From an uncultured Gammaproteobacteria bacterium (lineage in GTDB: Bacteria > Patescibacteriota > Microgenomatia > Levybacterales > UBA12049): a stretch of 64,000 bases of DNA. Of this stretch, positions 19,592 to 63,540 are shown in pieces (the first letter of the stretch is position 1; every line of letters starts with the position of its first letter). Location: assembly GCA_965230895.1 (NCBI GenBank), contig OZ246394.1, positions 1,377,887 through 1,441,886 of the forward strand. Direction: 5' to 3'. The notes beneath the pieces are model-generated. The model ran no database searches. It saw nothing but the letters and a program-made list of their open reading frames with translations, and was not told the DNA's origin. The translations under genes were made by a program, and so were the position numbers.

Positions 19592-21276
19592 TCTGTAAGC
19601 ACTTGCCATAAATATCCATAAGCGAGGAGTTTATAATGAGTTCCTTTATATATTATCTCTACAGTATCTCCAGAGACGTTGTGGAGCGCGAGAAGCGTCT
19701 CATTTGCCGATGTTCGTAGTAGGGCAAAAACTCTCAGATCGAGATCCAAAACTTCTTGTGCCGCCTCTGGATGCAATGCCGGATGAGAAGCTCGTTCTTT
19801 GATAAGAGCTTTCATAGCCGAAAAGACTTGAGCTTCTTTCGATGTTGCATCTGCAAGTTTCCCTGCAAGCCAGGAGTAATTTAAATTTGTACGTAGAATA
19901 TCTCGGATGTGACCTGTCTCATTAAATGCTTCTATGTCATTTGTTTTTCCAAAAAGAGAGAGGTAGTATACTGCCGGAACTCCTACTAGGGCAAAGCAAA
20001 GAGCATGTGTCATAATCACTTTTTGAAGCGCTTCTTCAAAGGGAACTTCATCACGACTTACAGCTGACCACCATGTTGCGCACATCTCATAAACAGCAGT
20101 CTTACCATTTGGAAGAGCTTTGTATCCAAGTCTTGTTCCATGCTCAACAGTCATCTCAAATATCTTTTCGATTTCGTTATCAGGCAAAATCCCACGAGCT
20201 CCGAGGATACCGATCCCATCATGGCATGAGAGGAAATTAAAAAAGGTGGTTTGCTTTGCGGGTAAATCATCAGAAAGCGTCTTTGCCCAAGACGAAAGAT
20301 AGGTTGCAGTTCCCGTATAAATTGCATGGAGTGTTAAGGGGGGTAGCGCAAAGTTATAGACCATATGTGCCTCATTATTCCCATCGCCATAATACGAAAC
20401 ATTCTCTTTATGAGGCACATTTGTCTCAGTTATGATAATGCCTTCAGGACAAACTTCTTCCAGAATCTTTCGAAAGATTTGCAATATTGCATGGCCTTGG
20501 GGAAGATGGACACAGCTTGTGCCAAGTTCTTTCCAGACAAAGGTAATTGCATCCATACGGAAGATTCGTACACCTTTTTCCATTTGGAACAAAAATACTT
20601 TGATCATTTCCAAAAGAACTTGTGGATTGCGATAGTTGAGGTCAATCTGATCAACTTGCCCATCCACACTAAAGGTCGTCCAGACTAATCGTTTTCCATG
20701 CTTTGTTTCAAAAGGAGTGAGAAGGGGTGAAGATCGAGGCCGAAAAACCTTATCTAATTGGTTTTTTAGTTCAGGCGTAAACTCTTTCGGAGCGTAGCTA
20801 ATAAAATAATCTTTATATGCATCTTCGCCTGCAAGAAACTTCTGAAACCAATCATGCGAAGCTGCAACGTGATTGAGCACGAGATCCGCCATTAATCGAT
20901 AGTCTTTTGCTATAGATTCGATCGTATTCCAATCACCAAAGCCTTCCTTCACGCGATAAAAATCAACTACTGAAAACCCTCGGTCTTTTCCGTCAGGATG
21001 GAAGGGAAGTATGTGTACTGTATTGATTGATTGCTCTGTATGCTCTTTCAAAAATGCATGGAGCGTTTCAAGTGAAGGCTTCTGGGATTCCTGAAATGAA
21101 TTGCCATAGCTTATCATGGTAATATCTTTCTCTGAAAAAAAGCTTTTTCGAGGATTTGTTGATGAATATTTACAATCTTTTAGTAGTTGCTTAAGCTCGG
21201 TAAAGTTTGCTTCTCCTTGCTCTGGACCGTAAAGAAAGATGAGATTTTGCTTAATGCTATCCATTGATGGATACAT
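19588..21276 (-). CDS. GH13 alpha-amylase-family glycoside hydrolase, sucrose/glucosylglycerate-phosphorylase-like
   Basis: GH13 catalytic motifs LVLNHVAASHDWF and RIFRMDAITF. No signal peptide. 562 aa. Confidence 0.65.
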   Translation of the reverse strand: MYPSMDSIKQNLIFLYGPEQGEANFTELKQLLKDCKYSSTNPRKSFFSEKDITMISYGNSFQESQKPSLETLHAFLKEHTEQSINTVHILPFHPDGKDRGFSVVDFYRVKEGFGDWNTIESIAKDYRLMADLVLNHVAASHDWFQKFLAGEDAYKDYFISYAPKEFTPELKNQLDKVFRPRSSPLLTPFETKHGKRLVWTTFSVDGQVDQIDLNYRNPQVLLEMIKVFLFQMEKGVRIFRMDAITFVWKELGTSCVHLPQGHAILQIFRKILEEVCPEGIIITETNVPHKENVSYYGDGNNEAHMVYNFALPPLTLHAIYTGTATYLSSWAKTLSDDLPAKQTTFFNFLSCHDGIGILGARGILPDNEIEKIFEMTVEHGTRLGYKALPNGKTAVYEMCATWWSAVSRDEVPFEEALQKVIMTHALCFALVGVPAVYYLSLFGKTNDIEAFNETGHIRDILRTNLNYSWLAGKLADATSKEAQVFSAMKALIKERASHPALHPEAAQEVLDLDLRVFALLRTSANETLLALHNVSGDTVEIIYKGTHYKLLAYGYLWQVLTD

Positions 21277-46200: not shown

Positions 46201-49200
46201 TGATGGTCTTATCACAGCTGATGTTAATGGAGTCTTAACACAAAATGCAAATGCATCACTCAATAGTTTTGGTGACCTCAATACTCGATATATTACGACG
46301 AACGCTACAGTTGAAGCGAGAACCTATCAAGCGAATGAAAACGCGTTAATTGTTAATCAAGGTTCTACTTCACCAACAGCTGCGGCAGCGCTCATTAAAG
46401 GTGGTACAACTCCAGGGGCTACTGCAGATCTTTTGCAACTCCAAAACAGTGGAAGCACTACGCTTGCACGATTCAATAGAAATGGCCAATTAGTAATCCA
46501 AGCAAATGGTGGCACAACACCAAATGCTTCAATCTCTGGAACTACAAGTTTCGCGTCTCAAATCGTTGATCAGGCTGGTGTAGGTGACATTTTCACTGCC
46601 TCAAAATCTGGTGCAACCAAATTCACAATCTTGAACAATGGCAACCTCTCAATGAACAATTACAATAACTGCGGAATGTTAACAACAACAGGAACTGTTC
46701 TGACATGTAGTTCTGCACCGGCAGGTGGAACTAACTATTGGAACCTCGCAAGTGGAACTTTGGCTCCAGTAAATACGACGCTTGATCTGTTGGTCGGAGG
46801 GACAGCCAGTAATTCAGCAAAGTTCGCAGTACTTAATATGAATTCAGGAACTCCAACAGCAAGTATTTCAGCAAATTCAGGTGGGAATGCAACATACCTA
46901 ACTGGAGACGGCACACTGTCCACAACACTTAATAAGACATTGAGTTTGAATCCAAATGGAGGAAACGTAGGAATCGGGACAACAAATGCTACACAAAAGC
47001 TTACAGTGAATGGAAGAATCAGAACAGATGGAGGTATGGTCTTCAGTCAAGGATTAGCTCCAACAGCTAATTTCATTTATGTCGGAGGAGATACTGCTGG
47101 CGCTACAGATCAACAGTTTGGGTTTGTCCTTGCAGGAGTTGGTTCAACCACAACTGCACAAGGAGGATACTTTGTAGGCCGCGGAAATAACTTTAGTGAC
47201 ATCTTGAATCAGAGAGGAAATATGTATTTTGCTGCAGGTAATCCAAGCTCACCAGGCGCACTTGAAGGATCGCTCAACTTCTTAACAGGAAATGAAGTGA
47301 ATAGAATGATGATTACAAACGCTGGTACCATCGGTGTTGGGACGACATCTCCTTTGGCAACACTTGATGTTCGAGGACAATCTGGAACACTTCCAGTTGC
47401 ATCTGTTTCAGGTCTTACCGCAATGGCGGCTTTGGTTGTAAATAATAATGGCATAGGAGATCTCTTTACAGCGTCAAAGAGTGGATCTACAAAAGTTGCC
47501 ATCACAAACACAGGAACACTCGCAGTTGGTTCATTTACACGAGCATCAGCTGCGACAACTCCAAAGGATCAACTCCATCTTTGGGGCAATGGTTCGTTGG
47601 GGAGTAATGCAATTATCCATTTCGGTGACGTCGCTAATGATTCCAATGCATATATTAAAGAAGCAACAACAGGTGATAGTGATCAACTGGAACTTGGTGG
47701 GCGACAAGGTTTGATCTTTGCAACTGGTACAAATACCTCTTATGGATTTGAACGAATGAGAATCGATGCAAGTGGAAACGTGGCAATTAATAATACTGGA
47801 ACTGCACAAGCTACATTTGATGTTCGAGGCATATCAGGTACAAATCCAGTTGCATCAGTATCAGGTACAACTTCACGGGCAGCAATGGTGGTAAACAATG
47901 ATGGTGTGGGAGATCTCTTCACTGCAAGTAAATCTGGATTACCAAGATTTGTCATCGACAATAGCGGTAATGTAAAGATCGGTACATCAGTATCAGGTGC
48001 AAGACTTCAAGTAACAGGAAACAGTGGTTATGGTGTACTTCTCGGCGCTGGTGCTGGTGGAGGAAATACAATTGACGGAACTTTAAATGGTGTAGCAAAT
48101 GAAGCTTTATGGCTTAACTCAATCTCAGAAAAAGATGTTTATATCGTTCCAAATAATGGAAGTGTCGGTGTTGGTACGAACGATTCAAGTGAGGGAAAGC
48201 TCACCGTAGCCGGGACATATACGAACGCAGCTTCTGATTATTCCGGTCTATTCGTCAATCCAACCTTTAGCCAAACGAGTAATAGCAGTAATGCATATTA
48301 TGGAACTCGAACCCAAGCTCTCTATGGAAGTGCATTTAACCTTGCAGAATTGGATGGAGCAGTCAATAACAGTGCCTTCTATGGAGCGGGGACACTCACG
48401 ATCTTGCGAGGATCATACAATCAGGCAAGTATCTCTCAGGGGACCACCGGTACTGCAAATTATGCTCAAGGTGTGGTTGGTGAAGTTGTCCATCGAGGCG
48501 TGGGAACAATTGTAGAAGCAACAGGTCTCGTTGGTACCGTCAGTCTCCAATCAAGTGGCACAGGTAACGATGGAGAAATCACAGGAGCTGCAGGTGTGAT
48601 TGGTTATGTCCAAAATAACCTCAGTGCAAACACAGGAACAATTGGTACCGGAACAGCGATCTATGCAGGCGCACCAACCGCATCAGCAAATGCTCCAATC
48701 ACAAACACAAGAGGTGTCTATATCGAGAACCAAGGATCTGCTGGCGTAACCAATGCAACAGGTCTCTACGTAGAAGGACAAAGCGGAGCAAGCGGCACAA
48801 ACTATGCCGCAATCTTTGCTAGTGGAAGAGTAGGTATCGGTACAACTGGACCTGCTGCGGTTTTGGATGTAAATGGAGATATTAAGGCGAGTGCAACAAT
48901 AACAAATACAGGATCTCTTGCTGGGCTTTCTATGGCAGTGGGTAATGATTCAGATGCAGATACACTCAGTGCTCTTTCAATTGATGTTACATCCGCATCC
49001 ACTGGAGATTCTGATAATGTCTACGGTCTTAATGTTGGCAATTTGACGGGAGCTGGTTCAACAGTAAACGAAAGTGGAATTAGAGTTGGAACTGGCTGGG
49101 ACAATGATATTGAATTCTCAGATAGTGCTCCAAATATCAAACTTGGTGCCACAGATAATACTTCAGAACTTACATTTACTGATGCTTCTTCAAATGTTCT

Positions 49201-50863
49201 CTTGAGAATGAGAGATATGAGTACTAACTTTGGAGCAGCGCTTTATGCGGGTGCATTTATTAACTTTAACAGTATGGTAGCTGAAGAATTCAATAGAACC
49301 CGTACTTCATTGTCTGCTGATACAACTGGTGCTCAGAATGGTGCTTTTGGTAACGGTGGTGGATGGGGTGTTTATGAAGGTGGAACAACTCCGAATTGTA
49401 CCTTTTCGACGCTTGCAGATACTGTCAATGGTATTACTCGCATGTCAGCGAACGCTGCTGCAACAGGTTGTATGACTATGATAGATGACTCAATAAATAA
49501 CGCAAAGCTTATGTATAACGTTTCAAATCTGCCAATCATCGTTATGAAAATTCGACCATCCCAAGCTGATACTACAAGTGGAGTATATGCTGGATTAGGA
49601 GATTCAACTGATGGTGCTGTTGCTGCCCCCACTAATTTTATTGGATTTTCAAACGATAATGCTGGAACACTTGGAAACACTTGGAGAGGCATTACTCGAT
49701 CAGGAGGAACCTCTACTACAGTTACATGTACTGGACAAACAGTTTCGACAACCCAATTTGCACTTCTTGTTATTGAAGTACGATCTTCTACAAGTGTTCG
49801 ATTCTTTATGGATAATGATGTTTCAAATGGTGTCAATTTGACTGAATGCGGATCGGGGAGTACTACCAATATTTATACAAGTAATCTTGCTCCTCAAATT
49901 CATTGGCAAGAAAGAAGTGGTGGATCAGCTTCCAATTTGGACTTAGACTTCTATCGAACTTGGCAGGACGATGCTCCAATGACTGATGGACTTACTGCTT
50001 CGCAGCCAGAAGCTTTAACTTTTGACGCTCCAGCTTCTGAATCAGCCACACTTGATACTCATGATGTTGTCTTGAGTACCTTAACTCAAGATGAAACAAG
50101 CGAGGGTGCAGATATCGAAGATGATACAACTGGAGAACTTTTAGCTGGACTGGATCCATTAAAAGGACGAGTTGATGAACTTGAAAATAAAGTTGCTTCA
50201 ATGGAGGCAAAACTTAATGATGTCAATATTGCAACACCGGCTGCATTTACAACTGTGTCTGTCGAGTCATCAAACTCTGCAGAAACAACTGAACTTGTGA
50301 AAACAGATAACTTGTCAGTTGCGGGGCTTGCGACTGTTTCAGCGAATTTGAGAGTCCAAGGGAACGGTTTGATCGAAGGTATCCTCAATGTCGTCGATAC
50401 ACTTACGGTAAGCAATTTCATCGTCAATAAATTGGCAACATTCTTTGGTGACGTTGTTTTCCATAGTGATGTCATTTTCAAAGGCACACCATACTTCAAT
50501 GCAGACACTGCTGGTTATGTCACTATCGCAAAGGGTTCAGACAAAGCAGAAGTGAAATTCACTAAGCCATACAAGAATGAACCAGTAGTCAATGCAAGTG
50601 TTGTGACGACAAAGCTTTCAGATGATGCGTTCAAGAAGCATGTTGAAGAAAACACATGCGAAGCAGATAAAGGAAAAGATATGTGTGAGCAAGTTGCTAC
50701 ACAAGAAGCGCTTGAAGATTCAATGCCATACATTATTGCATCTCGATCCAAAGAAGGATTTACCATTTTACTTTCTCAACCAGCCACCCAAGATCTAACG
50801 TTCTCATGGAGTGCGCTTGCGGTGATTCAGGCAGAAGAACTTGTGAAAGGAGGTGATAGATAA
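43280..50863 (+). CDS. giant secreted repeat protein (2527 aa), fibre/adhesin-like
   Basis: Signal peptide (AFA|ATG). N-terminal FQGKL...VPYAFNA domain. Five 60-aa LDxRG...GDLFTASKSGATKF repeats. Many IGTT.P...L.V.G beta-repeat motifs. C-terminal coiled coil (RVDELENKVASMEAKLNDV). Terminal domain shared with the 1433-aa protein. Confidence 0.7.
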   Translation: MKYILPVLRQKSYLRLTSLILCVVVASGSIFMAIKPAFAATGINQTINFQGKLVGSTGLNVADSTYSVVFTLYDASSGGTNLWDETQSVSTTDGIFQVQLGSVDTTLGNVDFNTDNLYLGIKVGADAEMTPRIRFAAVPYAFNAQKVAGLTVTNTTGTLTIPNGKTIEFADSFTTTGGNALTLATTGTTSITLPTTGTLLTNTATSNQTITSTQTSGTILGLTDSTNITGATTGLAISMTGTGAFDQTGLSFNLSGATGSNTNDIVGSGGTWKVSRSGDLTVNSCTGCTGGLANYWRLANGAFSPVNDTTDLLIGSAASASAKFGFLNVANGGTPTASISANSGNNATYLMGTGILATTNKQTLTLGQASTGNIVIGTDATARTVTIGNNTGASALAFTSGTAAQTFTSSATTGTAFSFVGNSVNTGTGLGLTANGLTNGNALSVTSTATALGSGRMLNISKTGASGSTAFTGDIANIAYSQTFNNGVGLNHTGNVMDLSRNITLNVAQTQTISGALMSLSDSATQSLGTLNSTADVLAITQNYAANTGAALNITSATNNGLIFRANDDGTLTDSTPFVIDGGGEVGIGTTAPNATLDARGILGTTPVASFSGSTAMASMVVDQSGIGDLFTASKSGATKFAVLNNGNLSMNNYNNCTMLTTIGTVLTCGSSPAASTQYVRLNNGAFSFVNDTADFLIGNTSSASAKFAFLNVNSGTPTASISANSGNNAAYFSGDGVLGTTNAQTLQLGSASTGDIQLKPGNNANSLYLASSGRVSIGNPALTTGVVNLVNNGLPTGDPTLVIQQGTGQTGDLMQFRNSLGNLIGKVDSSGNIAAPNFVDLAGTGPYLSFGGAATILDTRTGSNTGLVLKAGGTTQTGNLLEVQNNGGGVLSKFNGIGQLGLGAGTNSLLATLDARALSGTQPVASISGQTAQSSLVVDQSGTGDIFAASKSGATKFVINNAGNVRIANFTSTDGLITADVNGVLTQNANASLNSFGDLNTRYITTNATVEARTYQANENALIVNQGSTSPTAAAALIKGGTTPGATADLLQLQNSGSTTLARFNRNGQLVIQANGGTTPNASISGTTSFASQIVDQAGVGDIFTASKSGATKFTILNNGNLSMNNYNNCGMLTTTGTVLTCSSAPAGGTNYWNLASGTLAPVNTTLDLLVGGTASNSAKFAVLNMNSGTPTASISANSGGNATYLTGDGTLSTTLNKTLSLNPNGGNVGIGTTNATQKLTVNGRIRTDGGMVFSQGLAPTANFIYVGGDTAGATDQQFGFVLAGVGSTTTAQGGYFVGRGNNFSDILNQRGNMYFAAGNPSSPGALEGSLNFLTGNEVNRMMITNAGTIGVGTTSPLATLDVRGQSGTLPVASVSGLTAMAALVVNNNGIGDLFTASKSGSTKVAITNTGTLAVGSFTRASAATTPKDQLHLWGNGSLGSNAIIHFGDVANDSNAYIKEATTGDSDQLELGGRQGLIFATGTNTSYGFERMRIDASGNVAINNTGTAQATFDVRGISGTNPVASVSGTTSRAAMVVNNDGVGDLFTASKSGLPRFVIDNSGNVKIGTSVSGARLQVTGNSGYGVLLGAGAGGGNTIDGTLNGVANEALWLNSISEKDVYIVPNNGSVGVGTNDSSEGKLTVAGTYTNAASDYSGLFVNPTFSQTSNSSNAYYGTRTQALYGSAFNLAELDGAVNNSAFYGAGTLTILRGSYNQASISQGTTGTANYAQGVVGEVVHRGVGTIVEATGLVGTVSLQSSGTGNDGEITGAAGVIGYVQNNLSANTGTIGTGTAIYAGAPTASANAPITNTRGVYIENQGSAGVTNATGLYVEGQSGASGTNYAAIFASGRVGIGTTGPAAVLDVNGDIKASATITNTGSLAGLSMAVGNDSDADTLSALSIDVTSASTGDSDNVYGLNVGNLTGAGSTVNESGIRVGTGWDNDIEFSDSAPNIKLGATDNTSELTFTDASSNVLLRMRDMSTNFGAALYAGAFINFNSMVAEEFNRTRTSLSADTTGAQNGAFGNGGGWGVYEGGTTPNCTFSTLADTVNGITRMSANAAATGCMTMIDDSINNAKLMYNVSNLPIIVMKIRPSQADTTSGVYAGLGDSTDGAVAAPTNFIGFSNDNAGTLGNTWRGITRSGGTSTTVTCTGQTVSTTQFALLVIEVRSSTSVRFFMDNDVSNGVNLTECGSGSTTNIYTSNLAPQIHWQERSGGSASNLDLDFYRTWQDDAPMTDGLTASQPEALTFDAPASESATLDTHDVVLSTLTQDETSEGADIEDDTTGELLAGLDPLKGRVDELENKVASMEAKLNDVNIATPAAFTTVSVESSNSAETTELVKTDNLSVAGLATVSANLRVQGNGLIEGILNVVDTLTVSNFIVNKLATFFGDVVFHSDVIFKGTPYFNADTAGYVTIAKGSDKAEVKFTKPYKNEPVVNASVVTTKLSDDAFKKHVEENTCEADKGKDMCEQVATQEALEDSMPYIIASRSKEGFTILLSQPATQDLTFSWSALAVIQAEELVKGGDR
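45040..47990 (+). repeat. five near-identical intragenic repeat units (about 180 nt each) inside the 2527-aa gene, nested in three larger repeats of about 1.2-1.4 kb
   Basis: Protein repeats at nt about 45040, 46020, 46530, 47330 and 47810. SGTPTASISANSGNNATYL recurs at about 44280, 45420 and 46860. Nucleotide-level similarity is visible (e.g. GGAGATCTCTTTAC(C/A)GCG). Confidence 0.6.
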
Positions 50864-53512: not shown

Positions 53513-55720
53513 TTAGTTTGCTGGTTGCTCATTTGCCGCCTGACTTGGAGATGGATTTGTTGCTGGAATCGAAGGAGCAGGGATTTGCTCTCGTGGATTC
53601 CTCTCAGGCAATGTTGTTGATGGTCGGTTTACATCTATTTGCTGTTCTGCTTCTTCACCAGTGTTTGCTGGAGTTGCAGATTGGCTTGCTGTTTGTTGCT
53701 TGCTACCTTCGTTAGTTTGCTCGTTTCCTTGCTGTCTCTTGTTCAAGTTCGCGATATCAGCGTCAATCTTCGCTACATTATCTTTATTGTCCGCAACTAA
53801 TTGCTTAACGATATTGTATGCACTCAATGCTTGAGCATATTCACCCTTTTCTTCAAGAGCGTGCCCCAAATTGTAGTATGCATTTGCATAATCCTGTTTC
53901 AAATTGATTGCAATCTGGAATTGTCGGATCGCATCATCATATTTCCCCAATTGGTAGTATACGCCACCCAAGTCAATATATTGTTGTGGGTTATTTGCAT
54001 CAAGTGCGATAGCTTGTTGCAAAGTAAGGATAGTAAATTGATCGGCATTTTCACCAAAGCCGATCAAACTTCGGTAGATTGATGACAAGTTATTCCAGTT
54101 AAATGAGGTCATAGGGGAAACAGTGACTGCTGTTCTGCCTGCATTGATTGACTGCTGAATCAACGTTAAGATATTTTGCTGTGTTTGTGCGCTTGGAGAT
54201 GCTCCTTGTTGATTTACTGCGAGTGCATTAGCCAAAGCGAGATTTGTTTGTGAGAAAGATCGATAGTAGATGTCTCGATATGGGAATGTGTTAATTGAAG
54301 CAGCCTGCAATTCATATGTTGTGATGCCATCGTTTTGTGACGCAGCAACCAATGATCTCTGGAAAAGGAGGTCAGATAATGTGAATCGTGCTACAAAGTA
54401 GAGCGGAGCACCGATGACGACGATTACAAAGATTATGAAGACGATTGGAAGAATCTTACTAAATCTCTTTTCTGAAGCACTCTGCTCAACTCGATCTGAC
54501 TCAGGTGTAACGGCTAAGAAGCCTTTTTTGAAAGCTACTAAGTACATTTCAGCTTCACCAAATTTGCCAGGATTGTTGTGGATGCAAACGACAGCGAACA
54601 AAGCTAATAAGATAAAGAATAGTGCGATAAGAGTAAAAGAGAATGGCAAAGCAATAGCTGCTACGATCGCTAAGATCAATGGGAGGAAAAATGTCTTTTG
54701 CTTTAATACTCTTAAGATAATAAATCCGAATGCAACTAAGCCTAAAAGCCCTGTGGTTGCGAGCAATTCGAGCACGAATGAACTTGACCGGAAGAATGTG
54801 AATGCCCATAGCGTAGGGTTTGTGTTATATACAGCAGGCTTGAATTGAGTGAAATCATTAATGTATGTGCCAAACCCACTTCCGAGCAAGAGACTCTTAA
54901 ATATATTTGATGCACCTTGTGAGATTGCTGACATAGCTGTCTGCAATCCAGTATCAAATGGTAAAATAAGCGGCTTTTGTGAAGTGAAAAGCATATACAC
55001 AGTTAAACTCAAAGCAATAGCAATTACCGCGAATCCAACTGCAAAGCCAGCCATAGGTCCGCCTTTGCCTTTTCGAGCTCCTTCACCTTGTGCAGTCTTT
55101 GACGCGTTAAGGTAGTTGTAACCGAAATAGCCTGCGATTGGTAATACAATTGCGAGGTAGAGTGCCTGATCAAGCAACGATCCGAATGTGGTAAAAGCTT
55201 GAGATTTTGCATAGACAAATGGCAGTAAATGAATGTTAAAGAATGAAAAGATTGTTAAAATAGCCGAAACTGAAGCTCCAAGAGTCAATGCTCCTAGAAG
55301 AAAAAGCAGATGTTTTTCAGTTCGTACTGTATTTACAACTACAAAGTAGAGAAGCATGACAAACAATAATGGAGTGAATGCAATTAACGCGTCATATCTA
55401 TTGATACTAAAAATAGCTGAAAGTAATGTCACAACTGCAAATATCCCAACAGGAAGATCAAATGGAGAGGTCCTGAGTTTCAACTTTCCTTCAAAGAGTG
55501 TTTTAACTCCAAATAAAACAAGAGCAATGGATGTAAGACCGATAAGTAACAATTGCTTTGGTAATACAAACGCGTCAGTTGTACTACTTAGAAAGAGGAG
55601 CGGGAAGACGACGAAAAGTATGGCGACAACAAATAAACTTGCGCTTTCTAAATAAGATGTGATTCCTTTTTTTGTTCCGGGCATAGAATTGAAAAATAGA
55701 TCTCTATTAAACTCTACCAA
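53513..55720 (-). CDS. O-antigen-ligase/Wzy_C-like polytopic membrane protein with C-terminal TPR repeats
   Basis: More than 10 hydrophobic helices. C-terminal TPR (YYQLGKYDDAIRQFQIAINLKQDYANAYYNLGHALEEKGEYAQAL). Q/N/P-rich tail. Confidence 0.55.
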   Translation of the reverse strand: MVEFNRDLFFNSMPGTKKGITSYLESASLFVVAILFVVFPLLFLSSTTDAFVLPKQLLLIGLTSIALVLFGVKTLFEGKLKLRTSPFDLPVGIFAVVTLLSAIFSINRYDALIAFTPLLFVMLLYFVVVNTVRTEKHLLFLLGALTLGASVSAILTIFSFFNIHLLPFVYAKSQAFTTFGSLLDQALYLAIVLPIAGYFGYNYLNASKTAQGEGARKGKGGPMAGFAVGFAVIAIALSLTVYMLFTSQKPLILPFDTGLQTAMSAISQGASNIFKSLLLGSGFGTYINDFTQFKPAVYNTNPTLWAFTFFRSSSFVLELLATTGLLGLVAFGFIILRVLKQKTFFLPLILAIVAAIALPFSFTLIALFFILLALFAVVCIHNNPGKFGEAEMYLVAFKKGFLAVTPESDRVEQSASEKRFSKILPIVFIIFVIVVIGAPLYFVARFTLSDLLFQRSLVAASQNDGITTYELQAASINTFPYRDIYYRSFSQTNLALANALAVNQQGASPSAQTQQNILTLIQQSINAGRTAVTVSPMTSFNWNNLSSIYRSLIGFGENADQFTILTLQQAIALDANNPQQYIDLGGVYYQLGKYDDAIRQFQIAINLKQDYANAYYNLGHALEEKGEYAQALSAYNIVKQLVADNKDNVAKIDADIANLNKRQQGNEQTNEGSKQQTASQSATPANTGEEAEQQIDVNRPSTTLPERNPREQIPAPSIPATNPSPSQAANEQPAN

Positions 55721-55825: not shown

Positions 55826-58800
55826 TTAATTAACAATCCACCAGTTAAATGTGATATCTTTTGTCGCATTATTTGATATTTGGATAGTGAAAGATCCTTT
55901 TTTGCCAGTTTGTGTATCTTGAGCTGTTTGCCGAGCTACATAAAGTGTCATTTTCTGTGTATCAGACGTCGCTGTCACGTAAATCAATGAATCCTTTGTC
56001 ACGTAAGGAGTGAAAATTGTTCGTTCTTTTTGTTTTGCTTTAATGATGCCTTTGCCAGCTGAATTATTGGAAGTTGTTTCAACGACTGAAGTATCTGCTT
56101 GTACTCCTCGTACAATATTAATATTTGCGAACTTACCTGCACCGGATGCTTCAACATCACCTTTTTGGCTGACTCGTACAACATCTTTTCCTTGATTGTT
56201 CTCAACTGTGAGGTCTGAACCCGGAACTGGCGCAATGATGTTTGCTGCCAATTTTCCTTTAACCGTAACATCCTTTGCAAAGAATGCATTACCATTTACT
56301 TCGAGATTACCTTGGGTATCGATAGCAACTTTACCATTGACGAACTCTACGCCATTAAATCCATCTGATTGGATTCGAAGTGGACCTGAGGCCGTATTAA
56401 TTGTAGCAGTGCCTTCATCATCAAGTCCGTTAATGTTCATGAGTCCTACTGTCACTTTTCCAGTAATTCCAACGTCAGAAAGGGTTGTTCTGCCAAGGAC
56501 AGAAAGTGTATTTGAAACTGTAGCATCCCGCGTGTCCAATTTCTCAAGTCCTAGTTCTGTTGGAGTTCGTAACGTATCCATGAATGTTTGTGGATCTTGA
56601 GAGAGCATTTCACTTACTTCTGAGCTAAATTCGGCAGCAGGGGAAGCTGCTGGACTTTGTGTTACTGAAGGACTTGCCACAGGTGTCGCTGATGGAGTGC
56701 TCATGATTCGAGTGATAGTAGGTGTCGGTATACTATTATAGATAGGCATAATCGTTGCTGCTGGAGATGCAACTCTTTGAGCCGCGACTGTCGCCGTTGC
56801 ACTTTGTGTTGCTTCACTAGCTTGAATAGCTGCAGTTGTCGCATTTGGTTGTGTGTATGCAATTTCTGCAGATGCAGTTGCTGCAACGGTTAATCCCTCC
56901 AATGCATCTGCTGATGGAAGATCTGTCTTTGCTTGTCCAGTGATTCTTTCAACAATTCCTGCGATGTAGTCATCTATGTGTTGTCCATTAATGAAAAGGT
57001 CGGTTGATGTAATGTTCAAACTTTGTGTAGTAATTTCGGTAACTTTTATCACTGACGCGATAAAGCCATTTTCAGCCTTTTCATTTTGTTGATCAGTTGC
57101 TGTAGCAATGCCTGCATTAACAGCCAAATTCAAATCGCCAGCATCTGTGACTTGTGATTGCGGAACCTGATAAGAGATATTTACGAATGACATTACCTTT
57201 CCAATAGCATTTGGATCAGTATTGTCATAACTTTCGAGTGCTCGAGCGATGATCTGTCCAGGTCGTGTCGCTTTCATCGCAACTCCTGGTATGTTTGAAG
57301 AGGTGAGGGGATCTCCCGCTTTAATCGCTCCATTACTTGTTGTCACTTTCACTGGCACTCTTCCTTGTAATGCCAATGGATACACATTTGGATGGTCAGC
57401 ATCTGGAGCTGCATCTGAATTGAGGGTAAAACCAGGCTTAGTTGATATGATACCTATCACTTGAGATTGGTATGATGTAGTTGATTTTACAACTGCTTGA
57501 TTGTTCTGGAGACTTTCAGGTATTACAACGTCACCTGGTTCAAGTGTTTGCGCTGAAACATAATTCTCTGCTAAGTCAGCTGCTTGTACTGTTGTGTTCG
57601 CTGCATAGATAGTTCCAGGTGTTGAACCAGCACAAGCGCCAGCAGTTGCTCGGACGCAAATAGAACCAGCAACATTAAATGCTCTGAGTGATTGATTCCA
57701 TGCAATTGATGGGTCTTGGACGAGTTGAGCATTTGCGCCAATAAATGGTAGTGCACCTGGTGTAAAACCAGTCAATGTAAAATTCTTTCCAGCAGCAACT
57801 GTCATTCCTTCATTTGCATTAATTAAACCATTGGCATTAACTGTACCGTTTAATTTACTTTCACCTTTTACTTCTATACTATTATTAATAGTCGTAACGC
57901 CTGTCTTTCCACCAAGTGAAAGGGTGGTGGCATTATCACCGATTGTTAAATTGGTTACATTTGTATTAGCAATACCGAATGTGTTACTGTTTGATGCTAT
58001 AGTATTTCCGTTTATAGCAATGTTTCCAGCGAACATTCCATCTCCTGCAGCGTTAACTCTGAATTTAGCAACATCATTGGCAAAACCGCTAATGATATCG
58101 TCACCTGAATTTTGTTTGACAGTAAGGGCTGAACGTCCATTTGTATTCCCGAGGATAGCAACGATGTCGGTAATTGTTACCGCGCCTGGTATGCCTGCAG
58201 CAGTGTTATTGCTTGTAGTATTTTGGATTGGAGCTTGCATGTCTATAATACCCGAACCATCAGTCGTTAATTGGATATTGCCATTTGATCCAGGGTTTGT
58301 AGTAAGAACCATTGTTTGGCCTGATAATGTAAATTGGCCTCCAGTAGCTTGGAATGTAGGACTAGCACTGCCTCCTATAGTTAAATCACCTGATGAGTCT
58401 AAAGCCAAAATTACGTTCTCAGTCGCCGCACTGTTTGTTATAGGCTTTAAGCCCTGTAGTGCTTGAGAATTGCTTGCTAAACCTGTTGTTGCGATCTGTC
58501 TTCGAGGCTGCAATTCTGCATCTCTTCCTACAGTCAAACCTACATAAAGGTTAGGGTTAGACGTAAGTAATTGCTGAGTTAGTGTTGCTTTCTTTCCAAG
58601 TGCTGTCGTGAAATAGCCATCCTGGTCTGGGGTTACACTTTGTGTTTCTTGCCAGAGCAATGCTGCTCCTGAAGCAGTTGGGCTATTATATAGCGCAAAC
58701 CGCAGCTTCGTTTCTGCGGTGATTGGTGTATTTGTTTTGTCCATTAGTCTTCCTTGGAAAGCGAGTGTTCGCGGAGGAGATATTGGTTGCGAGGCAAGAG

Positions 58801-60127
58801 CTGCAGTGTTTTTACTTGGTGGTTCAACAGCAGCCTGGTAACTTGCTACACCTGCAACAGCCATAGCAAATATAAGGATTGCGAAATGAATATGATGGGC
58901 GATAGGGTATGAATGATACTTCTTATACCATGCTGGACGAGTATGTCTCATATGGTGCCAGACTCTCTGATACCATGGTAGATTCTTAAGAGAAATACTC
59001 AATGGCGCATAAAACGATTTAGAAATATTCCTTACGAAATATGGTTTTGCTTTCGTCTTAATTCGGACAAGATCACCCACAACTGTAGCCGTCCTAGTGG
59101 TTATGCGAGTTATAGTACTAACCTTTTTAGGCAATATTACTTCTATTGGCTCAACCGGTAGTTTGTGACCGGCATTTTCTAAAATGGTGTTAACTGGAGT
59201 AAATACGCTCTTGCCTGAATTCTTCCATAATGAATATTGTACAGCCTCAGCACCTTTAGCTATAGGGTTAAATATTAGCGAATCAAATAGGTGACTGACA
59301 AACTTAGTCGTTTTTTGTCCGAGTCGGATTGGAGCAAAGCTGGAATATTTTGTCTCTTTCGGTAATTCTTCCTCAGGTGTGATTTCCTTCAAAGCGGTTA
59401 GGGGCAAGGGTGCTGCTTCCGGTATAATCTTTTGGACTATGGTCTCTTCAGGTTCAACTTTCTCAACCTTTTCTTCAACTATTACTGGTTCTCTTTTAAC
59501 TAGTCCTTGATCACTCAACCAACGGAGATATCTTCGAAGTGAGGAGAGCTTTCTATTTATAGATGTAGGTGAAAACTTCGAATCACTCATTAACCTTTCT
59601 TTATAATGCTCAACCGTTGCAGTATCTATCATAATGAATCGGTTATCCTTTGATACGATATCATCGACATTTACCTTCTCGAACCACAAAAGAAATTGGT
59701 GGATATCATGCAAATAATTCTTGATCGTTAATTTGCTGGCGCCAGTTGCAACGAGAGAATTTTTATATGGTTTTATTTGCCAAGGGTCTTCAATTACTTT
59801 CGGAGAATCGGTAATTATTGCGTCAAATGGATTTGCCTCAATCGCCCCAGAATCGCGTAGGAAGCGACAAAACTTTCTTAATGATGAAATGTACCTCTTT
59901 GCAGAACGAGTAGCGACGACAGAACCTTGACTGTTTTCATTAAGACTCTGTTGATAGTTCTTTATAAGCTCGGGAGATAGATTTGAAGCTGAAAATGTAC
60001 TACCCTCAGTCTTTTCATACCATTGAATGAACTTCCTTACGTCAGAAAGGTAGTTTTTCACAGTTACCTTGCTAGGTTTATTCCTGTCTGTGAAAAGATG
60101 TAATCTAAAATCATTTACTATATCCAT
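55826..60127 (-). CDS. giant membrane-spanning protein (1433 aa): two N-terminal integrase core-binding (SAM-like) domains, TM helix, large extracellular beta-rich region
   Basis: Core-binding-domain-like segments TVKNYLSDVRKFIQW...YISSLRKFCRFLRDSGAIEANPFDAI and TIKNYLHDIHQFLLWF...KLSSLRRYLRWLSDQGLV. TM helix HFAILIFAMAVAGVASY. FQGRL N-domain and C-terminal domain shared with the 2527-aa protein. Confidence 0.65.
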   Translation of the reverse strand: MDIVNDFRLHLFTDRNKPSKVTVKNYLSDVRKFIQWYEKTEGSTFSASNLSPELIKNYQQSLNENSQGSVVATRSAKRYISSLRKFCRFLRDSGAIEANPFDAIITDSPKVIEDPWQIKPYKNSLVATGASKLTIKNYLHDIHQFLLWFEKVNVDDIVSKDNRFIMIDTATVEHYKERLMSDSKFSPTSINRKLSSLRRYLRWLSDQGLVKREPVIVEEKVEKVEPEETIVQKIIPEAAPLPLTALKEITPEEELPKETKYSSFAPIRLGQKTTKFVSHLFDSLIFNPIAKGAEAVQYSLWKNSGKSVFTPVNTILENAGHKLPVEPIEVILPKKVSTITRITTRTATVVGDLVRIKTKAKPYFVRNISKSFYAPLSISLKNLPWYQRVWHHMRHTRPAWYKKYHSYPIAHHIHFAILIFAMAVAGVASYQAAVEPPSKNTAALASQPISPPRTLAFQGRLMDKTNTPITAETKLRFALYNSPTASGAALLWQETQSVTPDQDGYFTTALGKKATLTQQLLTSNPNLYVGLTVGRDAELQPRRQIATTGLASNSQALQGLKPITNSAATENVILALDSSGDLTIGGSASPTFQATGGQFTLSGQTMVLTTNPGSNGNIQLTTDGSGIIDMQAPIQNTTSNNTAAGIPGAVTITDIVAILGNTNGRSALTVKQNSGDDIISGFANDVAKFRVNAAGDGMFAGNIAINGNTIASNSNTFGIANTNVTNLTIGDNATTLSLGGKTGVTTINNSIEVKGESKLNGTVNANGLINANEGMTVAAGKNFTLTGFTPGALPFIGANAQLVQDPSIAWNQSLRAFNVAGSICVRATAGACAGSTPGTIYAANTTVQAADLAENYVSAQTLEPGDVVIPESLQNNQAVVKSTTSYQSQVIGIISTKPGFTLNSDAAPDADHPNVYPLALQGRVPVKVTTSNGAIKAGDPLTSSNIPGVAMKATRPGQIIARALESYDNTDPNAIGKVMSFVNISYQVPQSQVTDAGDLNLAVNAGIATATDQQNEKAENGFIASVIKVTEITTQSLNITSTDLFINGQHIDDYIAGIVERITGQAKTDLPSADALEGLTVAATASAEIAYTQPNATTAAIQASEATQSATATVAAQRVASPAATIMPIYNSIPTPTITRIMSTPSATPVASPSVTQSPAASPAAEFSSEVSEMLSQDPQTFMDTLRTPTELGLEKLDTRDATVSNTLSVLGRTTLSDVGITGKVTVGLMNINGLDDEGTATINTASGPLRIQSDGFNGVEFVNGKVAIDTQGNLEVNGNAFFAKDVTVKGKLAANIIAPVPGSDLTVENNQGKDVVRVSQKGDVEASGAGKFANINIVRGVQADTSVVETTSNNSAGKGIIKAKQKERTIFTPYVTKDSLIYVTATSDTQKMTLYVARQTAQDTQTGKKGSFTIQISNNATKDITFNWWIVN

Positions 60128-61754
60128 GGCAGTTTATTGTGAAAACTCGTTACTTAATAAAATACGAAAACTCTTGTTTAGCTACGAAATTATACTGATT
60201 ATACCGATTATCAACGTTAAAAATGAGCTCTTAAACTAGAATATATAAAATGTTATTTGGATGTCAATAAGCTGGGGGCATATTGATATGTTTGGATACT
60301 CTTTGTTATTGTCGTGTTTTCATGATTTTAGCCTTAATGGTTACACATAGCTGTTTTAAAGGTTAAATTGCCTTAAAAATGCGGAAATTACTGCTATATT
60401 TCGTATTTTTCGTGAAGATATTTTTATTCTAGCCACGATTTGTGCCTATTGAGTTTGAGCACTCTTTACACAGTAATGCTCTGCAAAATGACTAAAAATG
60501 CTTGTAATATGGGATGTTTTTATTAACGAATATTTTAAGAGAAATATGATTCAATAGTAATTGAACTGTGTTTTTGATCTTCCGCAAAATGCTTGAAAGT
60601 GGTTATTTGGCATTCAGAATAGACTAGTGATAGCTTTCCTGAATGATTGTTTGGTTTGAATTGACAATCCAAATGTTTAATTACCGATATTTTACGATAG
60701 CATCATATGATTAATTGTACATACTGGCATCGCTGTTCGTTAATAGTGTGAGTTTGATGAAATCCATTTATAGCATGATCGGTAAAATCATACTATAAAT
60801 GGATCATTTATTTGTTGGGGTTTCTATATAAAGTTCTTACGATACCTTTCTTAGTGGAAGTAAAATAGCCTCAATATACCTAAACAGCGCTTATCATGGT
60901 TGTGAAATAGTGTTTTCACTAGGGTTAGCTCAATGGTGAAGTGAAGGATGTTAAGTCATATTTATAGTATAACATCTCAAAAATAAATAGTAGTAATAAA
61001 CGATAGCTAAACTGGTTATTTTAATAGTCCTATATTTATTAATTTGTTTCCACTCATTAGTGAATCCTATTTGCAACTTGTCAATAATTTTAAATTTAGC
61101 CTTGTAATAGAAGACAAGCTGAGAAGCCCTAGAAGGCCCATGAAATATTTCTGCTGTATAATTTATCATCCTATTAACGTATATGTAGGCTAAAGTTTTT
61201 GATAGATGTTTTGCAGTAAAAAGTTGAAGTATTGAGGCTAAAAATAAATTAATGTATATAGTAACTCGTATCTAATATGCATTAGAGTCTTAGAGTGATA
61301 GCACTATAAATACGGTAGTAGCTTTGATATCTATAAGATATGGAATGATCCAATAGTATGTGGCTACTATTCTCTAAGCATATCTAGAGGGATTTCTGCT
61401 AAAAGTTGATTTCTATAGTGTTATGACTATAATCGAGTAATAAGTGATGTTCTTGTGTCTATTTGGGGAAAGGGCTAGGTATTACAAATATACCTAAAAG
61501 GAGCTCTAGAGTTAATATTTAATAGAGTAGTGTAATATGGATATTACTATTGACAAAGTCTATTTAGCAGACTTCGTTTGACTATGATAGTTTGCGAACA
61601 GGTTGATTTGACAACCTAAACAAATAAATGCTGACATGTGTTTTTTAGAAGGCATTCAGATGCGTTTTAAGGCACGCAAATTCCTTTACCAGACTCATTG
61701 ATCATTATACAAAGACCTTAAAAAGCTCTAAATGATACATTTGAGTACTAGAAT

Positions 61755-62777
61755 TTACCTTAACTTCTTCTTTACTCTTTTATAAATGAGTATTGCCAAA
61801 GCTATTATGAATATAAGTCCGAGTAGCAAGTGGGTTGGAAAAACCATAAATCGGATAGTTTGTGAGTTTATTGGCCCATCCTCAGACATAGCTAAATTAA
61901 TTTGGGCACTATAAATCCCGAAAAGGAAATTCTCTTTCCATTCAACCTTAGGTTCGGTTGTCTCCTGGATTGTCCTTGCAATCTGAGTTTCATCAAATAG
62001 TGAACGGGAGGTGCCAGCTAATATCGGAGTTTCGGGAATATCTACTCGACCGACTGCTTGGCCAAAGATATTCTTTATAAGAATATTACCTTTAGGTGCG
62101 ATATAGTGTATGCCTGTGTTTTTAACCTTTATTGCAAATGGTACCGGGCCAGATTGTTTGTACCAAGGAGTAGAGAAATCTTCAATATAGCCTTGGGCTG
62201 TTTCCTGGTTTCCAACTGCAAGTAGAACATTTGCCCCGAGACCTCCTTGAATTGTTGTAATAGTGTGTTGATCTTTTTTGTCACTTATTGTGCTGTTTTG
62301 ATCTGTTTGCTGTGTGACATCATGGAAGAAAATGAGCGAAAAGTAATAGTCTCTAGAAGCTTGATTTTGAGGTAATTGCACTCGAAGCTGTAATTGTTTT
62401 TGCTGCTTAGGCCCTAAATCAAGGCTATTTACGCGTGCATTGTCTGTATCTACAACATATACATAGTTGAAGATGTCATTCGCTGAACCTGGGTTGTCTA
62501 TATATGACACTTTCCCTTCTTGAGATAAAGTAGGATCAAAAAGTTTATAAGCAAGTTTCAATCTGATGGATTGGTCGCTTTGATTCTCAATAATAAAAGG
62601 TGCTCGAAGATCAGAAGGTGTTTGAGCCTTAATCTTGATTGTTGAAGGAGTTATTTTAAGAGCAAGTCCCTCAGCATATGCTTTTGTAGGTAAAAATGAG
62701 CTCGCAAGTATTGAAAATGTCGCGACTCCAAGAAATAATCTCGACTTGAATGATGTAGTACGTTGTGCTTTGATCAT
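61755..62777 (-). CDS. cassette A3: third paralogue (signal peptide, C-terminal TM anchor, tail YKRVKKKLR)
   Basis: Same architecture as A1 and A2. Start abuts the B3 stop (TAA-T-ATG). Confidence 0.5.
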   Translation of the reverse strand: MIKAQRTTSFKSRLFLGVATFSILASSFLPTKAYAEGLALKITPSTIKIKAQTPSDLRAPFIIENQSDQSIRLKLAYKLFDPTLSQEGKVSYIDNPGSANDIFNYVYVVDTDNARVNSLDLGPKQQKQLQLRVQLPQNQASRDYYFSLIFFHDVTQQTDQNSTISDKKDQHTITTIQGGLGANVLLAVGNQETAQGYIEDFSTPWYKQSGPVPFAIKVKNTGIHYIAPKGNILIKNIFGQAVGRVDIPETPILAGTSRSLFDETQIARTIQETTEPKVEWKENFLFGIYSAQINLAMSEDGPINSQTIRFMVFPTHLLLGLIFIIALAILIYKRVKKKLR

Positions 62778-62778
62778 A

Positions 62779-63540
62779 TTAAAAGTTGGGAATAGCTATA
62801 AAGGTCACCGTATTACTATAGCCGCTAGGAGGTTGCGTGCCTGAAATATTTACTTTATAGGTGATCTTGGTGTTGGTTGTGGGTTTAGCTTGTTGGTTCA
62901 GTATAATTGACTGTAAAGTTTCCTTAGCGGAGATGTCTGCAAACTGCTTGAACGTATTGGTATTAGAAAAATCATTGCCGCAAACTTCTGTAGCCTCGCT
63001 ATCGCATCGAAATCCGAAGCCATATGTTAGAGAATTCTCCCAGTTTGCTGGAATTGTTTGGGTACACGTCCCGTTGTCGCAGGTAGTATCAGGCAGAAAA
63101 GTATTTTCTGTATTTAAAAATGGGTGATTCTCATAAGCAAAAATCTGACCTCCATAAAGAGGAGAAGTAAAGGCTAAATCAGAAGTTCTTATAACCGGAT
63201 TTGTGGCCGTAAGTGCCCCAAAGTCAATAGTATTTTGTGAGATAGAGAAGCTAAAATAGTCATTTGTGCCTGCAATAGTATATGTTGGTTTCGTATCTAG
63301 CACGACTTTTGGAATAGTAGGCACAAATGGTAATGGTTGGTTTGTTGGTTTTACAATTGGAGGTGGTTTTGTTACTTCCGGAGCTCCAGGGTCAATCTCT
63401 TCAAATTCAATTGAATAATCTCCACTTGAAGATACAGCTGCAAATGTTTGAGAAGAAAGTTGAAAAAAGAGAAGAGAACATACACCCGCGACAATAAATG
63501 GTTTAATCAAGTTCTTTGGTTGAAGATTGTGGGTTAACAT
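62779..63540 (-). CDS. cassette B3: third secreted B-type protein
   Basis: C-terminus ANWENSLTYGFGFRCDSEA...ITYKVNISGTQPPSGYSNTVTFIAIPNF aligns with the B1 and B2 C-terminal blocks. Confidence 0.5.
   Translation of the reverse strand: MLTHNLQPKNLIKPFIVAGVCSLLFFQLSSQTFAAVSSSGDYSIEFEEIDPGAPEVTKPPPIVKPTNQPLPFVPTIPKVVLDTKPTYTIAGTNDYFSFSISQNTIDFGALTATNPVIRTSDLAFTSPLYGGQIFAYENHPFLNTENTFLPDTTCDNGTCTQTIPANWENSLTYGFGFRCDSEATEVCGNDFSNTNTFKQFADISAKETLQSIILNQQAKPTTNTKITYKVNISGTQPPSGYSNTVTFIAIPNF

Follow-up and report, generated by a model that had tools for sequence, protein, structure and literature searches.

Why should a fibre protein of the cell surface carry two recombinase-type core-binding (CB) domains on the inner face of the membrane, and what might they bind there? 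This question is raised by a gene at positions 55826..60127 of the window, i.e., the whole stretch of 64,000 nucleotides analysed here, which encodes a 1433-aa protein composed of a tandem CB head, a transmembrane (TM) helix and a fibre (ORF list and translation; 191 full-length relatives). The gene and all features for which window coordinates are given below lie on the minus strand. An earlier note on this DNA had drawn attention to 58800..60127, which corresponds to residues 1-443, that is to the cytoplasmic head and the TM helix; it was silent on the large conserved family of the protein, on the putative Pam-type pilus pair alongside and on a dedicated cis element. The 1433-aa product is probably a trimeric, membrane-tethered fibre protein with a putative DNA-binding head, and the fusion is as unusual as had been proposed, no description of a CB-head/TM/fibre architecture having been found in the searchable literature. 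An internal start codon, which the earlier note had considered, can be dismissed: no other start codon separates the ATG from the in-frame stop ahead of it, which makes an upstream extension of the reading frame impossible, and methionine is kept at position 1 in at least 90% of the aligned relatives (n = 117).

The Cytoplasmic Head

CB (SAM-like) domain 1 comprises residues 1-105 (59813..60127) and CB domain 2 residues 112-215 (59483..59794), the latter being matched by PF13495 over residues 127-206 and 31% identical to domain 1. The assignment, originally made from a residue pattern, was borne out by the core-binding HMMs, as PF13495 and the XerC/XerD models match the N-terminus; the alignment to the XerC/XerD models is limited to positions 7-94 of 295 and scores 79 bits against a cut-off of 335. 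The two Xer-type domains in the cytoplasm arose by internal duplication. All matches to the head belong to CB-domain families, an OmpR-type winged helix was not found among them, and PF22822 (MrpR_N_CB) reached an E-value of 0.32 against the 1433-aa protein. Each domain has a net charge of about +5. Conserved positions in helix B are T22, N25, Y26 and D29 in domain 1 and K136, N137, Y138 and D141 in domain 2; in helix D they are R78 and the motif SSLRKF in domain 1 and N191-R198 in domain 2, in which the family alignment shows K136, N137, Y138 and D141 as well as N191, R192, K193, L194, S195 and R198 to be invariant. In Cre and Xer structures helices B and D form the DNA-contact surface of the CB domains, and the location of the conserved residues of both domains in these helices lends indirect support to a coupling to a signal.

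The catalytic domain of tyrosine integrases, PF00589 with its R-K-H-R-H/W-Y active site, had been reported missing and indeed gives no match at E ≤ 1 in the 1433-aa protein. Beyond residue 215, the translation and the AF2 model place linker, TM helix and fibre. Both N-terminal domains share motifs and fold with the XerC/XerD recombinases (PF02899/PF13495), but the protein differs from these in the lack of a catalytic domain, the tandem duplication of the CB domain, the membrane tether and the extracellular fibre. It cannot be a recombinase, and the label "site-specific integrase/XerD", which source databases attach to members of the family, is a misannotation; its correction affects hundreds of such calls in CPR genomes.

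Membrane Anchor and Topology

Three conserved parts, namely a helix, a basic juxtamembrane block and a single TM helix, tether the head to the membrane; they are preceded by a variable acidic linker (residues 216-259; 59351..59482) of net charge -7, low conservation and low pLDDT. The conserved helix, JM1, spans 40 residues with a central proline (residues 265-304; 59216..59335; AF2 helix with pLDDT 82-90) and is present in 200 of 242 proteins; with a Kyte-Doolittle (KD) maximum of 0.61 and basic flanks on both sides it is not a TM helix in the window protein and probably rests on the membrane or is re-entrant. The strongly basic, His/Tyr/Trp-rich block JM2 (residues 362-407; 58907..59044) contains invariant or near-invariant columns (K370, Y373-A-P375, R397-P398-x-W400-Y401-x-x-Y404-H405-x-Y407), retrieves 191 clusters when used as a query against the representative library, and lies within a loop (305-407) of net charge +14. 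A single TM helix near residue 400, as previously proposed, was located at residues 408-434 (58826..58906; KD 1.93), at a position conserved in the family and as a helix in the AF2 model. Averaged over the family, the 20 residues ahead of this helix carry a net charge of +4.8, compared with +1.0 after it, from which an N-in/C-out orientation follows, in agreement with the cytoplasmic N-terminus expected for the head. The topology is based on hydropathy, charge bias and a signal-peptide-bearing paralogue, the 2527-aa fibre protein encoded in the same window.

The Extracellular Fibre

The ectodomain, rightly described before as extracellular and beta-rich, comprises 993 aa and is all-beta in the AF2 model, which represents a monomer only and has pLDDT <50 in the shaft regions. 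It starts with Ext1, a membrane-proximal beta-sandwich base domain (residues about 452-545; 58493..58774; pLDDT 84-95) with a weak Bdello_MAT_N match of 19.8 bits against a cut-off of 60. With 38% identity (E 5e-18), the first ectodomain segment (453-557) matches the secreted 2527-aa fibre in an N-terminal region just past the signal peptide. Further distally, residues about 790-990 (57158..57760; pLDDT 75-95; invariant ADLAENY) form a phi29 gp12-type autochaperone (Peptidase_G2 IMC-like) domain, for which Foldseek returned the phi29 gp12 structures 3suc (E 3.2e-5) and 3gqh (E 1.3e-4); PF11962 or PF13884 is precomputed in many relatives, and Pfam stays below threshold on the window protein itself. 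A low-complexity Ser/Thr/Ala/Pro-rich segment (residues about 1040-1210; 56498..57010; pLDDT <40) is followed by a C-terminal beta domain (residues about 1350-1433; 55826..56080; pLDDT 82-88) that ends in FNWWIVN and has N988, W989, I991 and N993 as invariant residues (sub-alignment numbering). Ext1 occurs in nearly all members and overall length ranges from 1.3 to 6 kb of protein, so that outside the cell a conserved base carries a hypervariable, phage-appendage-like distal part.

The presence of a chaperone domain of autoproteolytic type, together with PF11962/PF13884 in relatives, raises the question whether the head might be released by proteolysis in a Notch-like or RIP-like manner, fibre tension or autoprocessing leading to cleavage near the membrane and to a soluble CB repressor or activator. 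A disordered variable segment (313-360) and the acidic linker (216-259) could serve as cleavage sites. However, cleavage of the gp12 type is confined to the ectodomain, the conserved neighbourhood showed neither a site-2-protease-type gene nor any other protease gene, and the conserved juxtamembrane block argues for a head that works at the membrane; we regard such a release as unlikely.

Phage-like fibres with an unchanging base, variable tips and an S74 or G2 intramolecular chaperone are shared with phi29 gp12 and with the mosaic adhesive trimer (MAT) proteins that the Bdellovibrio cell uses (PMC10769870). The MAT proteins differ in being secreted via a signal peptide and in having no cytoplasmic domain.

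Distribution of the Family

The survey of relatives yielded about 190 clusters (50% identity) with the same roughly 500-aa head on fibres of variable length. The head is unchanged in 200 of 242 proteins and the remaining ones look like fragments; named records belong mostly to Levyibacteriota and other Patescibacteria. This survey led us to reject the reading as an artefact or remnant, in which a decayed integrase would have been fused by misassembly or frameshift to a prophage tail-fibre gene. The database names 'site-specific integrase' or 'XerD' would speak for it, but the fusion was found in many samples with conserved start, linker, TM helix and synteny, the genes around it (rRNA, leuS and atp) are chromosomal ones, and 2.9 million viral contigs yielded nothing but six ordinary single-CB matches, so that this reading has hardly any probability left.

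Gene Neighbourhood

Two conserved partners lie upstream of the fibre gene. The first, p340 (61755..62777), starts with a signal peptide, continues with two beta domains and is anchored by a TM helix at the C-terminus (translation and alignment), a PamC/D-like architecture; in 46 of 50 loci it precedes the fibre gene on the same strand, its orthologues show a weak PF06030 match in five of seven cases, and no NCBIfam or PDB match was obtained for it. The second, p253 (62779..63540), consists of a signal peptide, a conserved N-terminal strand, a Pro-rich linker and a Pam-pilin-type C-terminal domain. The NCBIfam model CPR_Pam_pilin_C aligns over its full length in 7/7 p253 orthologues, all below the cut-off (best E 3.3e-8), the window protein scoring 24.9 bits against a cut-off of 55. 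Judged by sequence, the fibre gene appears to adjoin a reduced Pam-type pilus pair of a candidate pilin and a membrane-anchored chaperone-like protein. Downstream, a multi-pass membrane protein with C-terminal TPR repeats (53513..55720; Pfam TPR families and translation) is syntenic in many loci.

A preprint on the Pam pilus describes PamC/D as a FimC/PapD-like chaperone with a C-terminal TM helix and mentions a "tail fibre-like protein" co-localised in the CPR Pam locus, to which it gives one sentence with no CB domains, topology or cis element (bioRxiv 10.64898/2026.03.03.709456). The loci studied here resemble this arrangement in that the fibre gene directly follows the candidate Pam-type pilin and the membrane-anchored chaperone-like gene, and one family locus adjoins ATP synthase genes as the preprint describes. 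The "tail fibre-like protein" of M. amalyticus probably belongs to the CB-head fibre family, an identification made from its description.

In 25 of 33 loci having 10 kb of flank, the opposite strand carries the genes comEC-comEA(-MBL) in the upstream region. This conserved synteny is what speaks for the earlier suggestion of a link to DNA uptake, in which the head would bind incoming or outgoing DNA beside ComEA/ComEC and the fibre would contact the host. On the other hand, leuS intervenes and the whole block is syntenic, so that the linkage may reflect conserved gene order only; ComEC delivers single-stranded DNA, whereas CB domains bind duplex DNA; and the dedicated cis element would be left unexplained. 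A role in DNA uptake or transfer is considered very improbable.

The Triple-Repeat Element in the Gene Leader

The leader of the gene contains a family-specific cis element of 35 bp (60178..60212), made of three tandem repeats of about 9 nt, GATAATCG GTATAATCA GTATAATTTCGTAGCTAA, whose last base lies 50 nt ahead of the ATG. It is unique in the window and has one match per assembly. Among 185,579 species genomes, 44 of 54 exact matches precede a family gene by 17-250 nt. In loci found independently by protein similarity the element is present in 71 of 77 (0.006 expected by chance), where a consensus promoter precedes it and the start codon follows. The triple-repeat element is newly recognised and tied one-to-one to the gene family. 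It has no match in Rfam, and no conserved RNA structure was found in it. The tandem direct repeat matches the tandem arrangement of the CB domains.

The best sigma-70-like promoter (60240..60267) consists of TTGACA, a gap of 16 nt and TATATT (consensus scan, 11/12 matches), and aligned loci have TTGAC(A) within 47-77 nt upstream of the element. The element would thereby be placed at about +20 to +55 of the transcript, with the start site predicted from the promoter consensus alone. Between the chaperone-like gene and the promoter lies an AT-rich, gene-free spacer (60268..61754; GC about 0.31), whose length varies between 450 and 7616 nt (46 loci). It contains no conserved peptide, and conservation of its sequence is limited to the last ~140 nt.

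The element also bears on a structural role, in which the CB domains would anchor the fibre base either to the nucleoid, binding DNA non-specifically, or to a protein partner in the cytoplasm, and so fix the position of the fibre or resist pulling; on this view the repeat would have no connection with the head and would serve a strongly expressed surface gene as a promoter or pause feature. Such a tether is possible, though in our judgement doubtful. A plain anchor leaves unexplained why the element is restricted to the family gene across lineages whose proteins are about 31-49% identical, and the similarity is specifically to Xer-type CB domains that retain the basic helix B and D motifs.

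A Putative Membrane-Tethered Regulator

In the reading that we prefer, which in our estimate falls somewhat short of an even chance, the protein would be a membrane-tethered regulator or sensor in the manner of ToxR, its tandem CB domains binding to the triple-repeat element. The combination of a CB-head fibre with a dedicated element suggests, at the level of sequence, a direct link of surface contact to gene control. By binding of the tandem domains to the tandem repeat, the membrane-bound protein would control its own transcription, most simply by repression through roadblock or occlusion. Inserted co-transcriptionally, the nascent fibre would hold the locus close to the membrane and within reach of the CB domains, and engagement or assembly of the fibre on the host surface, beside the putative Pam-type pilus, may alter the cytoplasmic heads in their oligomeric state or geometry and thereby the occupancy of the operator. 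The coupling to a signal that had been suggested earlier is indirectly supported by the near-invariant, family-specific element in the leader, the conservation in helices B and D and the precedent of the recombinase-fold transcriptional repressors MrpR (SPbeta) and SroF (phi3T); the regulatory function itself is one that we infer.

Several points weigh against the regulator. The element is composed of perfect -10 hexamers and could thus act as a promoter feature or as a site of sigma-dependent pausing, bound by RNA polymerase or another factor instead of by the CB-head protein. One target per genome makes no visible regulon, the element being absent upstream of the neighbouring pilin gene, and no covariation of CB residues with element variants was seen, both being nearly invariant.

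More tentatively, and with the chances leaning against it, the family may represent one-protein signalling in CPR episymbionts: a phage-derived, host-touching fibre continuous with two reused Xer CB domains that read a dedicated triple-repeat operator would turn attachment, or fibre assembly beside the Pam pilus, into transcriptional control, and a kinase, a second messenger or a sigma/anti-sigma pair would all be unneeded. The CPR/Patescibacteria are ultra-small bacteria that live on other microbes in attached form and account for a large share of bacterial diversity, and almost nothing is known of their host sensing and of the regulation of their surface structures. With a defined head, a defined 35-bp element and a defined neighbourhood beside putative genes of the newly described Pam pilus, the family is a concrete, testable candidate, and it would be a cellular, membrane-bound addition to the short list of recombinase DNA-binding folds reused as regulators.

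The proposed regulator shares with ToxR, TcpP and CadC the order of a cytoplasmic N-terminal module, a single TM helix and an extracytoplasmic domain, and ToxR binds direct repeats. The likeness is one of design and not of descent, as ToxR and CadC have a winged helix and a small external sensor domain, in contrast to the unrelated CB fold and the ~1000-aa phage-like fibre described here, for which relatives reach about 5.6 kb of protein. The phage proteins MrpR and SroF are soluble and have retained the recombinase fold with both of its domains, whereas the window protein, a cellular membrane protein, keeps the CB domain only, twice; by analogy, the leader with its tandem repeat offers a candidate counterpart of the repeated DNA element bound by repressors of this type. 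A parallel case may be the L005 protein, a single case for which a search found no relatives, and in which a pair of MerR-type HTH domains is combined with a TM helix and a fibre of the Peptidase_S74 type, i.e., the same design with another DNA-binding domain, apparently by independent fusion. Plant transcription factors with an ALOG domain differ in being eukaryotic, soluble and single-domain.

Architecture of the Head and Membrane Topology

The fibre protein of 1433 aa is encoded at 55826..60127 (-), and according to the ORF list and the translation its start is the first start codon downstream of an in-frame stop, so that the objection of a true start lying internally does not hold. The earlier note had placed two core-binding (CB) domains, SAM-like domains of the Xer/integrase type, at the N-terminus, and the Pfam check agrees with this: Phage_int_SAM_1 was matched twice (best stretch 5-92, E 2.7e-17), and SAM_4 (127-206) and SAM_5 were matched as well. 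The claimed absence of a catalytic integrase domain was borne out, as no Phage_integrase match was obtained in the protein even at E<=1 (Pfam) and the XerC/XerD models (NCBIfam) aligned only over the first ~94 of their ~295 positions, with scores far under the cut-offs. Since it was tested for the catalytic domain of tyrosine recombinases and lacks it, the protein does not belong to that class; nor is it a full member of the MrpR/SroF type, with which it shares the CB domain only. The sole PDB sequence-profile match, the RaiA-labelled chain 14 of 9i5v, has no bearing on the CB domain and was set aside; this chain comes from P. gingivalis, and just 34 residues of its RaiA part were modelled on the ribosome.

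Conservation mapping combined with a structure model resolves the head into CB1 (residues 1-105), CB2 (residues 112-215), a variable acidic linker, the juxtamembrane module JM1 (residues 265-304), which is a conserved 40-residue helix with a proline at its centre, a disordered variable stretch, and a second juxtamembrane module, JM2 (residues 362-407; 58907..59044, -), which forms a very conserved basic/aromatic block beside the membrane. Conserved positions in JM2 are K370, Y373-A-P375 and R397-P398-x-W400-Y401-x-x-Y404-H405-x-Y407. Its sequence, HHMRHTRPAWYKKYHSYPIAHHIH, is His/Tyr/Trp-rich and nearly invariant across the family, and JM2 could act in interfacial oligomerisation or signal transmission, or form a metal/pH-sensitive site. 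A single hydrophobic helix follows at residues 408-434, matching the one transmembrane (TM) helix proposed earlier near residue 400. Family-wide, the net charge is +4.8 in the 20 residues before this helix and +1.0 in the 20 residues after it, and the preceding 100-residue loop carries a charge of about +11; this bias argues for an N-in/C-out orientation. Independently, Ext1, the first ectodomain, resembles the domain directly following the signal peptide of a 2527-aa fibre encoded in the window (38% identity, E 5e-18) and is therefore read as extracellular, so that both the cytoplasmic N-terminus and the extracellular fibre claimed from the sequence find support. The 2527-aa protein itself (43280..50863, +) is a secreted fibre with signal peptide and the shared membrane-proximal base domain, without the cytoplasmic head, and no Pfam or NCBIfam match was found for it. 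In roughly half of the relatives the hydropathy of JM1 passes the threshold for a TM helix, but in the 1433-aa protein it stays below, at 0.61. In view of this score and of basic flanks on both sides, a second TM helix at JM1 was rejected, and the flanks lead us to read JM1 as a helix that lies in the plane of the membrane or re-enters it.

A Constant Head on a Variable Fibre

With the whole 1433-aa protein 191 relatives were found, essentially all of which carry both SAM-like Pfam families, and which are named in their sources, where names are given, "site-specific integrase", "XerD" or "tail fiber domain-containing protein". A juxtamembrane query (residues 255-445) searched against 1.84 billion representatives returned 191 clusters; the proteins reach 6048 aa in length, and in all of them the match falls ~250-440 residues into the chain. 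The survey of the fusion in relatives, suggested in the earlier note, was performed with five home-made HMMs, one for each head module, and recovered it widely: the order CB1-CB2-JM1-JM2-Ext1 is present in 200 of the 242 proteins, while the remainder look like fragments. That the architecture is an artefact is thus hardly conceivable to us. The fixed module order together with the varying lengths describes a constant ~500-aa head whose attached fibre differs greatly in length; release of this head by proteolysis, as opposed to its action at the membrane, appears improbable. Membrane-integrated regulators, reused recombinase DNA-binding folds and cellular phage-like fibres are already known kinds, and literature searches found no description of the CB-headed fibre family.

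In the ectodomain model the presumed shaft regions are of low confidence, as expected for the monomer of a fibre, and three parts fold with confidence: the base domain, the final ~85 residues and, between them, a domain at about 790-990. For this middle domain the match is to the phi29 gp12 appendage, namely its autochaperone domain (3suc, E 3.2e-5; 3gqh, E 1.3e-4), which agrees with the precomputed annotation of many relatives with Peptidase_G2 or Peptidase_S74 domains. The ectodomain therefore belongs among phage-like fibres with intramolecular chaperone domains. A phage origin of the family was rejected, since no full head was found among 2.9 million viral contigs. The window is chromosomal, as it holds 23S and 5S rRNA plus a tRNA. 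This cluster (15584..19324, +) comprises tRNA-Ala, 23S and 5S rRNA, with the 16S gene not directly upstream, and the 23S match extends over 3251 nt against a model of 2925 positions, which suggests an insertion of ~300 nt in the 23S gene. Named family records are mostly from Levyibacteriota, and also from Shapirobacteria, Paceibacterota, the "Patescibacteria group" and Saccharimonadales; the metagenome-bin labels Gammaproteobacteria and Acidiferrales clearly cannot be trusted, as the loci concerned show the same CPR synteny.

A Tandem Repeat Accompanying the Family Gene

The final ~140 nt before the family gene are conserved and contain an invariant TTGACA followed by a triple tandem repeat. 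The best sigma-70-like promoter match is located at 60240..60267 (-) with TTGACA, a spacing of 16 nt and TATATT, and ~20-55 nt downstream of it, relative to an inferred start site, lies the cis element (60178..60212, -), consisting of three tandem ~9-nt repeats, GATAATCG-GTATAATCA-GTATAATTTCGTAGCTAA, of -10-like hexamers. The repeats seem to bear a loose resemblance to the inner arm of dif half-sites ((G/A)CATAA). The exact pattern, with 19 specified bases, was scanned in one genome per species of 185,579 species and gave 54 matches, each on a different contig and one per assembly: 44 precede a family gene by 17-250 nt and one by 431 nt, two are interrupted by contig ends, and the other seven come from unrelated phyla and appear to be coincidental. 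The unbiased direction of this test is provided by 77 loci picked by protein similarity, of which 71 carry the tandem motif (<=2 mismatches, <=500 nt upstream) vs 0.006 expected; in two of the six remaining loci, L104 and L124, it does occur, but at a greater distance, a small ORF having been inserted between it and the gene. The element occurs once in the window, with no second copy found there, and it is new, without earlier description. At the RNA level no structure is conserved in it. A regulon search revealed no enrichment of its 8-mer and no element upstream of the pilin gene.

Helices B and D form the DNA-contact surface in Cre and Xer structures, and the conserved residues of CB1 and CB2 fall in helix B and helix D, which points to a predicted role of the CB domains in DNA binding. 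Because tandem domains face a tandem repeat that accompanies just this gene, autoregulation is suggested: the CB domains would bind the direct repeat, and the membrane-tethered protein would control its own gene with the fibre serving as external input. We put this forward tentatively, at somewhat below an even chance. The design logic proposed is that of ToxR/CadC, which are not homologous to the 1433-aa protein and differ in the DNA-binding fold. That the head serves only as a structural tether and the repeats of -10-like hexamers are a promoter or sigma-pause feature is rather unlikely in our judgement. Covariation of CB residues with element variants yielded nothing usable, both being nearly invariant. 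At locus L005, the gene directly after the family gene (14329..19794, +) encodes a protein of 1821 aa that follows the same plan with other parts: MerR/HTH_17 domains, two in tandem, precede a TM helix at ~213-233, and a long fibre as well as a Peptidase_S74 domain complete it. This independent fusion supports the idea that DNA binding is the property under selection; a homologue search with its MerR head returned just small soluble MerR regulators, so that the fusion is a single case.

A Pilus-Like Gene Pair and the Wider Neighbourhood

Loci were compared using seven found via exact proteins and 80 found via a peptide-pattern scan of metagenomes. In 46 of the 50 loci whose upstream flank extends to 4 kb or more, the family gene is preceded by a same-strand pair of secreted-protein genes, p253 and p340 (62779..63540 and 61755..62777). 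All seven p253 orthologues match the NCBIfam Pam pilin C-terminal model over its full length, below cut-off. In the pilin-like p253 protein (62779..63540, -), a conserved strand at the N-terminus, which might serve as a donor strand, accompanies a CPR_Pam_pilin_C-type domain. The p340 protein begins with a signal peptide, continues with beta-rich domains and carries a TM anchor at its C-terminus. Judged from these domains, and with the p253 match below cut-off, the two may represent a reduced Pam-type pilus pair with p340 as a putative PamC/D-like component. Consistent co-localisation with the pam operon was reported for ATP synthase genes and for a tail fibre-like protein, "tail fibre-like protein" being that preprint's only mention of it, without further description (bioRxiv 10.64898/2026.03.03.709456). 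At locus L004, atp genes follow the family gene, and we infer that the tail fibre-like protein is the present CB-headed fibre family.

Further upstream, leuS, comEA and comEC lie on the opposite strand in 25 of 33 loci. This divergent block upstream of the pilin gene, which also includes an MBL-fold gene, is syntenic in most loci and corresponds to 216..5725 of locus L001 and its equivalents, past window position 64000. Coupling of the fibre to DNA uptake, as the comEA/comEC proximity might imply, is very unlikely. Downstream of the family gene, a multi-pass TPR membrane protein is often encoded; in the window (53513..55720, -) this conserved protein has C-terminal TPR repeats and its gene has its own TTGACA promoter. 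A modifying action on the fibre, in its Ser/Thr/Pro-rich part, is no more than speculation.

Between the promoter and p340, an AT-rich gene-free spacer of ~1.5-1.6 kb (60268..61754, GC about 0.31) is found in a small genome. Its sequence is not conserved, and its equivalents in the loci compared measure between 450 and 7616 nt. Hidden small genes were rejected, as no peptide is conserved between loci beyond the effect of the conserved promoter-near DNA. No structured RNA was detected in spacer or leader (Rfam, E<=1), RNAalifold gave no leader structure (single-sequence z -0.27), and repeats inside the spacer are at chance level. The ORFs inserted between cis element and family gene at L104 and L124 encode small four-helix bundles (23S_rRNA_IVP-type), and the spacer may be an insertion-prone site.
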